Source of the DNA: Candidatus Margulisiibacteriota bacterium
GTDB lineage: Bacteria; Margulisbacteria; WOR-1; O2-12-FULL-45-9
Reading direction: 5' to 3'
NCBI GenBank assembly: GCA_034723395.1
Contig: JAYEOW010000050.1
Location: forward strand, 1 to 57,626
DNA length: 57,626 nt
Of the stretch, positions 36,001 through 39,000 are shown piece after piece. Position 1 is the stretch's first letter, and every line of letters begins with the position of its first letter. Made by a program: the position numbers.

Positions 36001-39000
36001 CGCACTTGATATTTATCTTTTTTGCCTTGTACATCTTACAAAAAGGGAGCTTAACGTGTTTTCCGCTCATGGTTTTGGGCAGGTGCCAGAGGGCCTTTAA
36101 TGTTCCTATGTAATCTAAAACACAGACGTCCAGCAGCCCGTCGTTGGCTGCCGCAAATGGCGTCAGCTGGAACCCGCCTCCGCAGAACTTGCCATTGCCA
36201 ATGCTGATAAGCAGCACTTTTTTTTGGGGAAGAAAAGTGTCGTCCATTTGTATCTGGACTCTTTTAGGCTTATATGTGAATAGGGTGGGGAGGGAAGCCC
36301 CCAGATAAGCGAAGAAACCGCGAAGATATTTTTCCATCTTCTGTTTGCGCTCGCCGATCTCTCCGTCAATAGCCAGCCCTACGTTATTTAGAAAATAGCC
36401 GTCGTTTATTTTTCCCAGGTCTATCTTTTTTGTATGCCCCTCTCGGATAACATCGCAGGCTTCTCCTATGCTTTTCCCGGATATCCCGGCCAGGCGGGGC
36501 GCGTCATTACCGGAACCACAGGGGATAATCCCGAGAGCCGCGTCGCTTCCAACCATCCCGTTGACGACCTCATGGGTCAGGCCGTCACCGCCTACCGCAA
36601 TGATCTTATCAAAACCGTTTTGGACGGCTTCCTTCGCGAGAATGAGCGCTTCGCCCCTCTTGGATGTGCGGGACAACTCATAGGGCATGTCTCTCTGATC
36701 AAGGCATTCCTGGATCCTTGGCCATATTTTTTCGGCTTTACCGTGCGAGGCGGCAGGGTTGAAAATCAGTTTATATTTCATAAAATTACCAAATTGTCCC
36801 GGTGGACTGCTTCTCCTACTCCTTTATTACCAATTAATTTAGCTAGTTCATCAGAAGATATCTCAACCAATCCACGTGCGAGCTCTTTGTTGCTTTCATC
36901 AATAATAGAAACTAAAGCCCCGGATTTGAATTTCCCCTTGATAAATTGAATTCCAACCGGTAGCAGGCTGGTCCCTTTCTTCATTAGCGCCGATTCCGCG
37001 CCGGAGTCGATCGTTAACGTCCCTTCAACCGGGAGGCCGTGTGCCAGCCACCGTTTACGGCTGTCCATCCTAAGTGGTTTTGGAGTAAAAATAGTCCCAA
37101 CCGGCTTACCTTTTAAAAGTTTCCTGATTAGCCCGTCTTTTTTCCCATGGACAATCGCCATATGGATCCCGGCATCACTGCAAATTTTAGCCGCTTGCAG
37201 TTTGGTGATCATTCCGCCGGTCCCAAGCTGGGTTGACGGGCGTCCGGCGGCATTTTCCACGTTGCCGTTAATCTCTTTTATCTCGGAAGCCAGGTAGGAG
37301 ACCCCTTCTTCGTTCTCCATATAAAAACCGTCAACATCGGTCAAGAGGACCAGTATATCTGCTCCGACCAGGCTGGCGGTAAGGGCGGCTAAATTATCAT
37401 TATCCCCGATCGTGATCTCGTCAATCGCAACCGTATCGTTTTCGTTAACGATCGGAACAACCTTTTCACCAAAGAGGGTATCGAAGGTATGGCGCGCGTT
37501 TAAATAGCGGTCCCGGTTAGCGATCGCGTCACGGGTTAAAAGAAGTTGAGCAACGGTTATATCGTGGGCTTCAAACGCTTTTTCGTACTGGCGCATCAGG
37601 CGTGATTGGCCGACTGCGGCTGCCGCCTGTTTTTGCGGGATCGTCTTTGGTTTGCCCAATCCTAATCTCTCCGCGCCGCAAACGATCGACCCGGAGGTTA
37701 CGATAACAACCTTCTTTTTTTGATTAATCAGCTCTGCGGCTTCAGCGACGACCCTTTTAAGGTTTTTCAGGTCCAGCTTTCCCTTGGGGTTTGTAAGCGA
37801 GGAACTCCCGATTTTGATGACAATCGTTTTGTAGGCCATGTTATGCAGGCTGGACGCTTACCCGTTTCCCTGGTTCAAAAACGACTCTTCCGCTAGCCAG
37901 GGCGAAAAGGGTGTGGTCGTTGCCGATCCCGACATTTTGTCCGGGGTAAAATTTGGTCCCGCGCTGGCGAATGATGATTGAGCCGGCAGAAATAACTTGT
38001 CCGCCAAAGGACTTAACGCCCAAGCGCTGGCCTACTGAATCTCTTCCGTTTTTTGACGCCCCTCCCGCCTTTTTATGAGCCATGTTTGACTTCCTCGATT
38101 TCTACCCTGGTATAGGGCTGTCTGTGCCCAATAGTGCGGTGATAATTGGTCTTGTTTTTATATTTGAAAGTAGTGACTTTTTTATCTTTCCTGTCGCCGA
38201 GGATCTTTGCCGAAACCTTTGCCCCCTTAACATATGGGGCGCCGATCTCAACTTTTCCGTCATCGGCTAGAAAAAGGACCTTATCAAAGGTTACGTGGCG
38301 TTTTGCTTCGATCAGCTCGACGTCCAAAAGGTCTCCTTTGTTCACCTTGTATTGTTTTCCGCCAGTTTCAATAATCGCGTACATGACTCTGGTATTATAC
38401 CAGAAAAGCTTCAAGGATTTCAATACCCCGGGGGAGCTCCTTGTTAAGCTTTGCCATAACTTCATGTGGTTTGATATTCTCTTCGAATTGGACCACTGCG
38501 CGCTCATCCATTGATGAGCGCCCGACTTTAAGCGCGTTTCCCCAGGATATCCGCATATGGGGATTAAACCCTTGTGAGTAGACAACCGGCAGGTCGGCGC
38601 GGCGGATTGCCCGCTGGAAGACCTGCATTAGGTTTCGATGCGAGATAAACTTTACCTCGTCACCTTTAGTATATTTAATTTTTATCCGCTTCACGCCGCA
38701 ATATCTCCTTTGGTACTCCGGTATTAATAAAATCCCAGGGCAGGGGTTCTTCGATTCTTCGAGCTTTAAGATAATTGTTGGGATTAATGCCGGTCTCTGT
38801 AAAAGCTTTTTGCCAGATATCAAATTTAATATGCTCGTACCAGGCGTCGAGCCGGGCTCCGAGCTGCCACGCCTTCTCGATAACCTTCGAAAGTTTTTGG
38901 TCTCCCCGCGAAAAAACGCCTTCAAGATAGCTCGATTCGGCCTGGTGCCAGCGGACCTTGGCCCCTTTTTTGTTTTTAAGGATGCTTTTTATCAGGTTTT

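Follow-up and report, generated by a model that had tools for sequence, protein, structure and literature searches.

Absence of the ribosome-assembly GTPases Era, Der and Obg from a bacterium of the class WOR-1 (Margulisbacteria), and their probable stepwise loss

The genome of an uncultured bacterium of the class WOR-1, called G000 below, encodes no recognisable copy of the three ribosome-assembly GTPases Era, Der (EngA) and Obg. These proteins are held to be essential, serve as near-universal markers and have been proposed as broad-spectrum antibiotic targets. We think it probable that the three were truly lost, one after the other, and that the remaining factors are enough for assembly. Era would have gone first, at the root of the phylum or close to it, then Der at the root of the class, and finally Obg inside the class, through a clean excision from the row rplU-rpmA-obg-proB. 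G000 would in addition have lost EngB, RsgA, RimM and RimP, so that its remaining kit would consist of the GTPases LepA, BipA, HflX and YchF together with RbfA and YbeY; roles in ribosome assembly are known for LepA, BipA and HflX. Aided by slow growth and by a 23S rRNA that is slightly streamlined, these surviving factors may suffice for the late folding of the 50S and 30S subunits, which is policed elsewhere by Der, Obg and Era.

The bacterium does not belong to the CPR/Patescibacteria: its homologues carry the names Margulisbacteria, WOR-1 or Saganbacteria, and the NCBI taxonomy places Margulisbacteria within the Cyanobacteriota/Melainabacteria group. A CPR-like minimal assembly kit would have originated independently in this phylum beside the cyanobacteria, where Era, then Der, then Obg were apparently lost while the 16S 3' end kept its normal length and both the peptidyl-transferase region and the L1 stalk were preserved. 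This uncultured relative of cyanobacteria would show that a ribosome of normal appearance may get by with very few helper proteins. A preliminary description of this DNA had stated that the ribosomes are assembled without the three factors. The absence of the genes stands, and G000 has to build its ribosomes with those recognisable factors that remain; that they are assembled without any substitute is something that we infer from this absence.

GTPases encoded in the genome

G000 is a metagenome-assembled genome of 1.68 Mb (55 contigs, 97.24% complete). Six-frame matches to MMR_HSR1, together with NCBIfam, yield ten GTPases of the translational class (MnmE, HflX, YchF, FeoB, IF2, EF-G, an EF-G-like protein, LepA, BipA and EF-Tu), which reproduces exactly the list given previously. 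We took as Obg a protein with a glycine-rich N-terminal Obg fold and an Obg-type G domain, as Era one with a single G domain and a C-terminal KH domain, and as Der one with two tandem G domains and a KH-like domain. In the six-frame searches of G000, the top score for Obg (TIGR02729) is 75 bits against a cut-off of 280 and belongs to YchF, matched at model positions 159-283 only; for Era (TIGR00436) it is 68 bits against 116 and belongs to MnmE, matched at positions 4-163 with the KH part unmatched; for Der (TIGR03594) it is 124 bits against 307 and corresponds to one G domain of MnmE. RbgA/YlqF, whose G domain is circularly permuted (TIGR03596), has MnmE as its top match in G000 (46 bits, cut-off 208) and is over the cut-off in none of the 31 genomes of the order. 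Nothing was found in G000 at E 1e-25 for EngB/YsxC (TIGR03598, cut-off 124 bits) or for RsgA (TIGR00157, cut-off 100 bits). These two had also been described as missing, which is right for G000; however, EngB is present in 4 and RsgA in 5 of the 15 family relatives, and because their presence is so patchy among close relatives, the absence is a trait of G000 and of some relatives, not of the order.

Profiles made from 12 Obg, 5 Der and 2 Era proteins of the phylum itself were also run unfiltered against all 8,695 ORFs of at least 60 aa in G000. Their matches are confined to G domains of known GTPases: in these ORFs, neither the Obg fold (positions 1-160 of the Obg profile) nor a KH domain was matched. 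One Der-like match (contig C53, 6374-6700; 15 bits, E 0.007) contains an internal TGA, and its translation has neither KH-like nor G-domain features; we rejected it as a chance match. As had been claimed, RbfA and YbeY are both present in G000, while RimM and RimP gave 0 matches each. The place beside ybeY was considered as a former position of era and rejected as a scar, the row being murA-ybeY-dgkA-corC in G000. No era scar can be defined, because the flanks of the phylum's only two era genes have almost no homologues in this genome.

Two gene junctions in the window

The window, that is the whole stretch of 57,626 nucleotides that was analysed, contains the places where obg and der lie in relatives (Table 1). 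The gene order in Obg-bearing relatives is rplU-rpmA-obg-proB (rpmA-obg-proB in G084, G085, G086 and G070), and the TIGR03960 and TIGR03936 pair is found upstream of rplU also in the Obg-bearing G102 and G089. In the window, the ORF coordinates leave a single base between the stop of rpmA and the ATG of proB, hence there is no space for obg between them. The earlier claim that rpmA abuts proB and excludes obg is thereby borne out, and it can be extended: the rpmA-proB junction is direct in 45 of the 46 Obg-less loci of the class. A diverged obg in the 1.35-kb gap between rpmA and proB of G094 was rejected, since what lies in this gap is an unrelated gene of 375 aa, encoded on the opposite strand. 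Rfam revealed neither an RNA leader nor any other RNA near the rplU-rpmA-proB row.

The second junction concerns der, which is adjacent to rpsA in 5/5 loci from relatives outside the class; the order in G072 is rpsA-der-queF. In the window, rpsA is followed instead by pyrF, which overlaps its end by 4 bases. This is a second synteny scar.

Table 1. Features at the two junctions of the window and the YchF paralogue of G000 (window positions unless a contig is given)
Feature	Position	Strand	Evidence or remark
proA	33662-34912	minus	
cdsA	34978-35880	minus	
YegS-type lipid kinase	35894-36781	minus	
proB, glutamate 5-kinase	36778-37839	minus	TIGR01027, 387 bits vs cut-off 186
One-base rpmA/proB junction, obg position in relatives	37840	.	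ORF coordinates
rpmA, ribosomal protein bL27	37841-38083	minus	TIGR00062 L27, 119 bits vs cut-off 90
rplU, ribosomal protein bL21	38073-38384	minus	TIGR00061 L21, 111 bits vs cut-off 44
TIGR03936 gene, partner of radical SAM gene TIGR03960	38395-38925	minus	TIGR03936
Radical SAM gene	38675-40345	minus	TIGR03960
queF	51706-52092	minus	next to pyrF, in der position
pyrF	52076-52807	minus	in der position after rpsA
rpsA, ribosomal protein bS1	52804-54309	minus	NF005208, 378 bits
YchF paralogue, dead P-loop	G000:C33:6436-7449	minus	TIGR00092, 222 bits vs cut-off 279, profile positions 125-368 only

The content of the window also bears on the idea that the cell depends on a partner cell, and either tolerates very poor ribosome assembly or is helped by the partner, as proposed for episymbiotic CPR bacteria. 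Biosynthetic genes found within the window alone (proA/proB, pyrF, queF, dapB and a TrpA-like ORF) speak against such a dependence, and we know of no precedent for the import of assembly-factor proteins between bacteria, which counts against help of this kind. The idea is scarcely credible to us, even though it has in its favour the small size of the genomes (1.2-2.2 Mb in this class) and a set of factors resembling that of CPR bacteria (PMC12641178).

Distribution over the phylum

The counts come from six-frame searches of 146 genomes, the phylum being assigned as Margulisbacteria by the names of homologues; 65 of these genomes belong to the class WOR-1 and 31 to the order of G000. All genomes compared are metagenome-assembled and none is from a cultured organism. 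Full-length Era occurs in 2/146 genomes: six were flagged over the cut-off, four of them by the summed scores of the two G domains of Der. Der occurs in 73 of the 81 genomes outside the class (over the cut-off in 70 of them) and in 0/65 within it. Obg is over the cut-off in 82/146, including 10/65 in the class and 0/31 in the order, to which one fragment at a contig end must be added. The distribution described previously (Era missing from nearly the whole phylum, Der from the whole class, Obg lost within the class and from all 31 genomes of the order) was thus found again, the only change being that the phylum count for Obg had been 84 with another model. G138, counted among the ten genomes of the class with Obg, has the gene alone on a contig of 1,358 bases, while rpmA directly adjoins proB at its native locus; this genome is a doubtful carrier of Obg.

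Missing genes in such genomes might be an artefact, the genes lying in unassembled or unbinned parts or being missed by the HMM searches. G000 is indeed in 55 contigs and has no 23S rRNA, and many relatives are only 70-90% complete. However, the same search recovers uL1 from 63/65 and bL27 from 61/65 genomes of the class, and it was positive every time for Era, Der and Obg in the ten bacterial control genomes. G129, a genome of the same order in one contig (98% complete), has the identical absences, and obg and der are missing inside gene rows which are intact and contiguous. This explanation is very improbable, and we consider it close to refuted.

How often Obg was lost depends on the branches that are trusted. 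On a tree of RplU, RpmA and ProB, its presence and absence require 4 changes on the best topology and 1 on well-supported branches, and a single Obg-less clade is not rejected by the AU test (p 0.254). The genomes form a graded series (all three factors, as in G070; Obg only, as in G086; none, as in G129 and G000), which amounts to a natural experiment on what Era, Der and Obg really do. It should be useful for defining a minimal assembly kit in cell-free and minimal-cell work.

Comparison with other bacteria

Among non-CPR genomes, more than 99% encode Der and ObgE; in CPR bacteria the pattern of der and obgE is complementary (Amikura et al. 2025, PMC12641178), and this pattern has been argued to be unique and to reflect an early divergence (PMC12641178). 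The present lineage and the CPR/Patescibacteria have in common class-specific losses of der, obgE and era, the near absence of RimM and RimP, the retention of LepA, YchF and BipA, and a shortened helix H58 of the 23S rRNA (PMC12641178). They differ in several respects. The losses of der and obgE are complementary in CPR, whereas here both genes are gone, and for this reason the pattern exceeds the CPR reduction. RbfA is kept here. A further difference, this one from the Der-less CPR classes, is that uL1 and the L1-stalk rRNA are intact (PMC12641178). Reduced repertoires can arise secondarily and more than once; therefore the argument for an early divergence of CPR is weakened.

Three factors "near-universal outside the CPR" was slightly too strong a wording for Era, which Chlamydia and Dependentiae, as well as most CPR, are also listed as lacking in a review (PMC10582724). 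As in these lineages, the loss of Era appears secondary and the genomes are reduced; in contrast to them, the loss spans 144/146 genomes of a phylum and was followed by those of Der and Obg. Mollicutes likewise combine a small genome with a pared-down translation system, but G000 has none of the assembly factors quoted for them (PMC12641178). Neither "Margulis" nor "WOR-1" appears in the text of PMC12641178 or in one of its text supplementary files, and the passages of the review that deal with Era-less bacteria do not name Margulisbacteria. We found no earlier report of this loss in the phylum, which the phylum-level supplementary figures of PMC12641178 and figure 1A of PMC10582724 may already show.

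In E. coli, Der (EngA) and ObgE are reported to be needed for efficient 50S assembly in vitro under near-physiological conditions (PMC12641178). The E. coli reconstitution concerns the same two late 50S factors and depends on both (PMC13278734, as described in PMC12641178), whereas here a natural ribosome would be made with neither. Because of this requirement, a loss of Der and Obg without a substitute is hard to square with E. coli (PMC12641178).

Ribosomal RNA

Era binds the 3' end of the 16S rRNA, which is canonical and of normal length (GGAUCACCUCC). The G000 assembly has no 23S rRNA, and so our statements on rRNA rest on relatives; the 23S was located across the class by BLAST with a 501-base piece of it as the query. 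Between relatives that have the factors and relatives that lack them, there is no difference in the lengths of the L1 stalk, H68-71, H89-93, the sarcin-ricin loop and the GTPase centre, and the binding sites of Der and Obg on the rRNA are unchanged. Peripheral 23S helices are trimmed, namely H10, H63 and the H58 region of domain III, from which about 55 nt are gone. For a possible coupling of Obg loss with H58 truncation, the supported branches offer a single independent pair.

These observations allow a bolder but rather doubtful proposal, which we advance tentatively. This non-CPR lineage would have the smallest known set of assembly GTPases (LepA, BipA, HflX and YchF only) and would have reached it by changing the ribosome: the large subunit would fold without late GTPase checkpoints, Obg loss being tied to the removal of about 55 nt in the H58 region and the trimming of H10 and H63. 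If this were true, the "essential" step of Der and Obg would serve as a quality control that can be dispensed with, and the bacterial ribosome would not need it mechanically.

A YchF paralogue with a dead P-loop

A rival explanation is that the functions persist through a non-orthologous factor or one diverged beyond recognition. Our candidate is a YchF paralogue (Table 1) that could bind the ribosome as a scaffold and so stand in for Der or Obg. Its P-loop reads GAPQAGQQQ, compared with GxxxxGK[ST] for Walker A, and G3 is lost; it does not qualify as a YchF by TIGR00092, to which the true YchF of G000, on contig C20, gives 434 bits. YchF is a member of the Obg family, and the C-terminal domain of YchF is retained in the paralogue. 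All of its 120 top homologues share the altered P-loop, GxPQ[AS]GQQ[QE], and the paralogue occurs in 35/65 genomes of the Der-less class and in 0/81 outside. However, the closed or near-closed genomes G129, G132 and G121, all of them without Era, Der and Obg, do not have it, and it coexists with Obg in G083, G086, G087 and G090; its neighbours (a sigma factor, DUF5674 and a U32 peptidase) are uninformative as to ribosomes. No replacement candidate besides this paralogue was found, a phyletic-profile screen being left out. We judge a replacement unlikely, and genuine loss of the three GTPases remains our preferred reading. Short proteins of the YchF family also account for the Obg-like matches of 97-105 bits in G110 and G111, which are YchF proteins of 301-318 aa and were rejected as Obg.

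Gene order at the obg and der slots

In the window, a continuous row of genes runs on the minus strand from a B12-binding radical SAM gene to proA (see the table). Within this row the last base of the rpmA stop codon is 37841 and proB opens with its ATG at 37839, which leaves 1 base between the genes: the preliminary description was exact in stating that rpmA abuts proB with no room for obg. The order is rplU-rpmA-obg-proB(-proA) in three Obg-bearing genomes of the class WOR-1 (G084, G085 and G086) and in one from outside the class (G070), and radical SAM-TIGR03936-rplU-rpmA-obg in the relatives G102 and G089. 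The row of G000, the genome which holds the window, is the Obg-bearing row of its relatives with obg excised. Among 46 Obg-less loci examined, drawn from families f1, f2, f7, f8 and f10-f13, proB lies within about 120 bases after rpmA in 45. The sole exception to the direct junction, in G094 (family f7), is due to an intervening gene of 375 amino acids on the opposite strand (2807-3934, minus strand, of the extracted locus L140), which has a CxxxCxxC motif and is an unrelated gene.

A second gene-order scar lies in the window at the der slot. Der directly follows rpsA in all five loci from outside the class, the order in G072 being rpsA-der-queF; in the window rpsA is followed by pyrF, with an overlap of 4 bases, and then by queF. 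No era slot can be defined in the gene order of G000, where the ybeY row reads murA-ybeY-dgkA-corC.

Features of the window discussed in the text
Feature	Position	Strand
Low-GC block	1-28424	
Integrase fused to an AAA domain	12735-14210	
OLD-family ATPase/TOPRIM and UvrD-like helicase	19059-21947	
tmRNA gene (ssrA)	28724-29140	minus
smpB	29845-30309	
proA	33662-34912	minus
cdsA	34978-35880	minus
YegS-type lipid kinase	35894-36781	minus
proB	36778-37839	minus
rpmA (bL27)	37841-38083	minus
rplU (bL21)	38073-38384	minus
TIGR03936 partner of the radical SAM gene	38395-38925	minus
B12-binding radical SAM gene (TIGR03960)	38675-40345	minus
queF	51706-52092	
pyrF	52076-52807	
rpsA	52804-54309	

GTPases of the genome

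The assembly of G000 has 1,676,655 bases in 55 contigs, of which the window is contig C50, and is 97.24% complete and 2.43% contaminated. A six-frame search with MMR_HSR1, a model of G domains in general, gave 9 places above the cut-off and one EF-G slightly below it. The ten GTPases previously attributed to the genome are the same ten ORFs which NCBIfam names: EF-G (1187 bits), LepA (960), BipA/TypA (894), an EF-G-like protein (865), IF2 (798), EF-Tu (726), HflX (459), YchF (434), MnmE (396) and FeoB (351). ABC ATPases, a guanylate-kinase-like ORF and others of this kind account for the weaker P-loop matches.

The best score of the Obg equivalog model in G000 is 75 bits, on YchF (cut-off 280), while the models of Era, Der and RbgA all score best on MnmE, with 68 bits against a cut-off of 116, 124 against 307 and 46 against 208; the models of EngB (cut-off 124) and RsgA (cut-off 100) gave nothing at E 1e-25. 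The scores of the first four models below cut-off are confined to G domains of the GTPases already listed. To allow for divergence within the lineage, we made profiles from 12 Obg, 5 Der and 2 Era proteins of the phylum itself and searched them, with the speed filters off, against every stop-to-stop ORF of G000 with at least 60 amino acids (8,695 in all): no Obg fold, Der KH-like domain or Era KH domain was found, only the G domains of known GTPases. Recognisable genes are absent, and the claim that Era, Der, Obg, EngB and RsgA are missing holds for every one of these models, each below its cut-off or without a match in G000.

Distribution across the phylum

With G000 counted, the phylum set comprises 146 species genomes, of which 65 belong to the class, 31 to the order and 16 to the family. 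Obg is above cut-off in 82 of the 146 and in 10 of the 65 class genomes (families f3, f5, f6 and f9, plus G138); it was found in none of the 31 order genomes. Among these are G129, a single contig that is 98% complete, and G132 and G121, with 5 contigs each. G087 has a genuine C-terminal fragment of Obg at a contig end. G138 is the only genome of family f11 with an "Obg": the gene stands alone on a contig of 1,358 bases (G138:C23, locus L062) and scores 350 bits, below the other Obg scores, and at the native locus proB follows rpmA without obg between them. This Obg is doubtful, and probably misbinned or foreign.

The Era model is above cut-off in 6 of the 146 genomes, four of which are flagged by Der genes (ORFs of 448-465 amino acids, in which two G domains are summed); a full-length Era, covering model positions 1-270, was found only in G058 and G070. 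Der is present in 73 of the 81 genomes outside the class (70 above cut-off and 3 contig-end fragments) and was found in none of the 65 inside it. EngB and RsgA are patchy, with 30 and 62 of the 146 genomes and 4 and 5 of the 15 family relatives, respectively. Among genomes more than 90% complete, G000, G103 and G117 have none of the five factors. The same method recovered uL1 in 63 and bL27 in 61 of the 65 class genomes. Incompleteness costs about one genome in 20 per gene, and cannot account for 0 of 65 for Der or 0 of 31 for Obg.

These nested distributions support an order of loss in which Era preceded Der, the loss of Der falls at the base of the class, and Obg followed later. On a maximum-likelihood tree of RplU, RpmA and ProB (57 rows, 7 of them with the two ribosomal proteins only, and 438 columns), Obg changes state 4 times on the best topology, only 1 change being forced by well-supported branches, and a single Obg-less clade is not rejected by an AU test (p 0.254). 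There were between one and four losses of Obg.

Ribosomal RNA

The 16S rRNA of G000 is complete (C28:2469-3954) and its 3' end, GGAUCACCUCCUUUCU, retains the sequence recognised by the KH domain of Era, as the motif is described in the text of PMC10582724.

As 23S rRNA is absent from all 55 contigs of G000, we compared it in relatives: G070, with all three factors (2983 nt), G086, with Obg only (2942 nt), and G129, G132 and G145, with none (2866, 2862 and 2796 nt). Numbering follows an alignment to an E. coli copy of 3,055 nt (L073, NZ_CP007394.1), allowing for its own insert of 152 nt; this insert, at positions 2524-2675 of the copy, is missing in all five relatives. The three genomes without factors have deletions at about E. 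coli 158-177 (H10), 1461-1517 (the H58 region, about 55 nt) and 1719-1742 (H63), and in G145 the H98 region is deleted as well. Helix names follow the E. coli secondary structure. The L1 stalk is 104 nt long in all five, and among these five genomes H68-71, H89-93, the sarcin-ricin loop and the GTPase-associated centre do not differ in length and are similar in their identity to E. coli. Hence there is no remodelling at the sites of action of Der and Obg; peripheral helices are remodelled.

The 23S loci of relatives used here are L068-L072 and L076-L105. We surveyed the H58 region in the 29 class genomes with usable data, G137 being excluded as its contig ends in the region. It measures 68-69 nt in all six Obg-bearing genomes, and also in G088, where Obg was not found in an assembly only 68% complete. 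It measures 12-17 nt in 18 genomes (6 of 6 in f1, 8 of 8 in f2, two in f11, one each in f12 and f13), G138 being counted here, 25-37 nt in G094, G100 and G140, and 114 nt in G092. The association of H58 shortening with Obg loss is striking but unexplained, and supported branches provide no more than one independent contrast for it.

Remaining factors and a YchF paralogue

For RbfA, YbeY, RimM and RimP the side claims made before hold in G000: RbfA, whose gene adjoins infB, and YbeY are present, and RimM (PF01782) and RimP (PF02576) have no six-frame match at E 1.

A candidate substitute is a YchF paralogue of 338 amino acids (G000:C33:6436-7449, minus strand; locus L064:1501-2514), 32% identical to true YchF. 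It has GAPQAGQQQ as Walker A and no longer a G3 motif, but retains the helical domain and the C-terminal domain of YchF. The altered P-loop, GxPQ[AS]GQQ[QE], is kept in all 120 top homologues, which are named as DUF933 proteins from Margulisbacteria, WOR-1 or Saganbacteria. Of the 65 class genomes 35 have an orthologue, at 55-69% identity, and of the 81 outside none, so that the family is restricted to the class without Der. As the preliminary description remarked, the paralogue does not track the loss of Obg: G129, G132 and G121, all without Era, Der and Obg, do not have it, and four genomes have both it and Obg. This excludes it as an obligatory replacement. The factors which remain, together with slow growth, would suffice for ribosome assembly, presumably with no hidden substitute.

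Comparison with known reduced systems

According to Amikura et al. 2025 (PMC12641178), more than 99% of genomes outside the CPR/Patescibacteria have obgE and der, against 60% and 38% of CPR genomes, where the two are complementary; CPR genomes are also almost without rimM and rimP, and their H12, H58 and H78 are shorter. The paper names Bipolaricaulota and Omnitrophota as factor-poor; its text and one supplementary text file contain neither "Margulis" nor "WOR-1". The groups free of "Era addiction" named in the text of PMC10582724 are Dependentiae, Chlamydia and most CPR. A literature search over article text returned no paper reporting this loss for Margulisbacteria or WOR-1.

The likeness to the CPR in a reduced assembly kit is here found in a phylum beside the cyanobacteria. 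Compared with the CPR pattern this lineage is further reduced, being without both Der and Obg, yet it has kept uL1, the L1 stalk and RbfA. The absence of Era, Der and Obg first noticed in this genome is thus confirmed by missing recognisable genes, gene-order scars and a nested distribution, and the reading that its ribosomes are assembled without them is supported.

A low-GC block near the tmRNA gene

Finally we must note that the window begins with a block of low GC content (0.32-0.42, against 0.44-0.53 in the remainder), which borders the tmRNA gene on its 3' side. Besides the fused integrase and the ATPase/TOPRIM and helicase genes, which form a Gabija-like pair, it holds an EcoRI-type methylase with a GmrSD/HNH nuclease, a patatin, and an EcoO109I-type endonuclease with a C5 methylase. 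The block has the look of a defence island next to ssrA.
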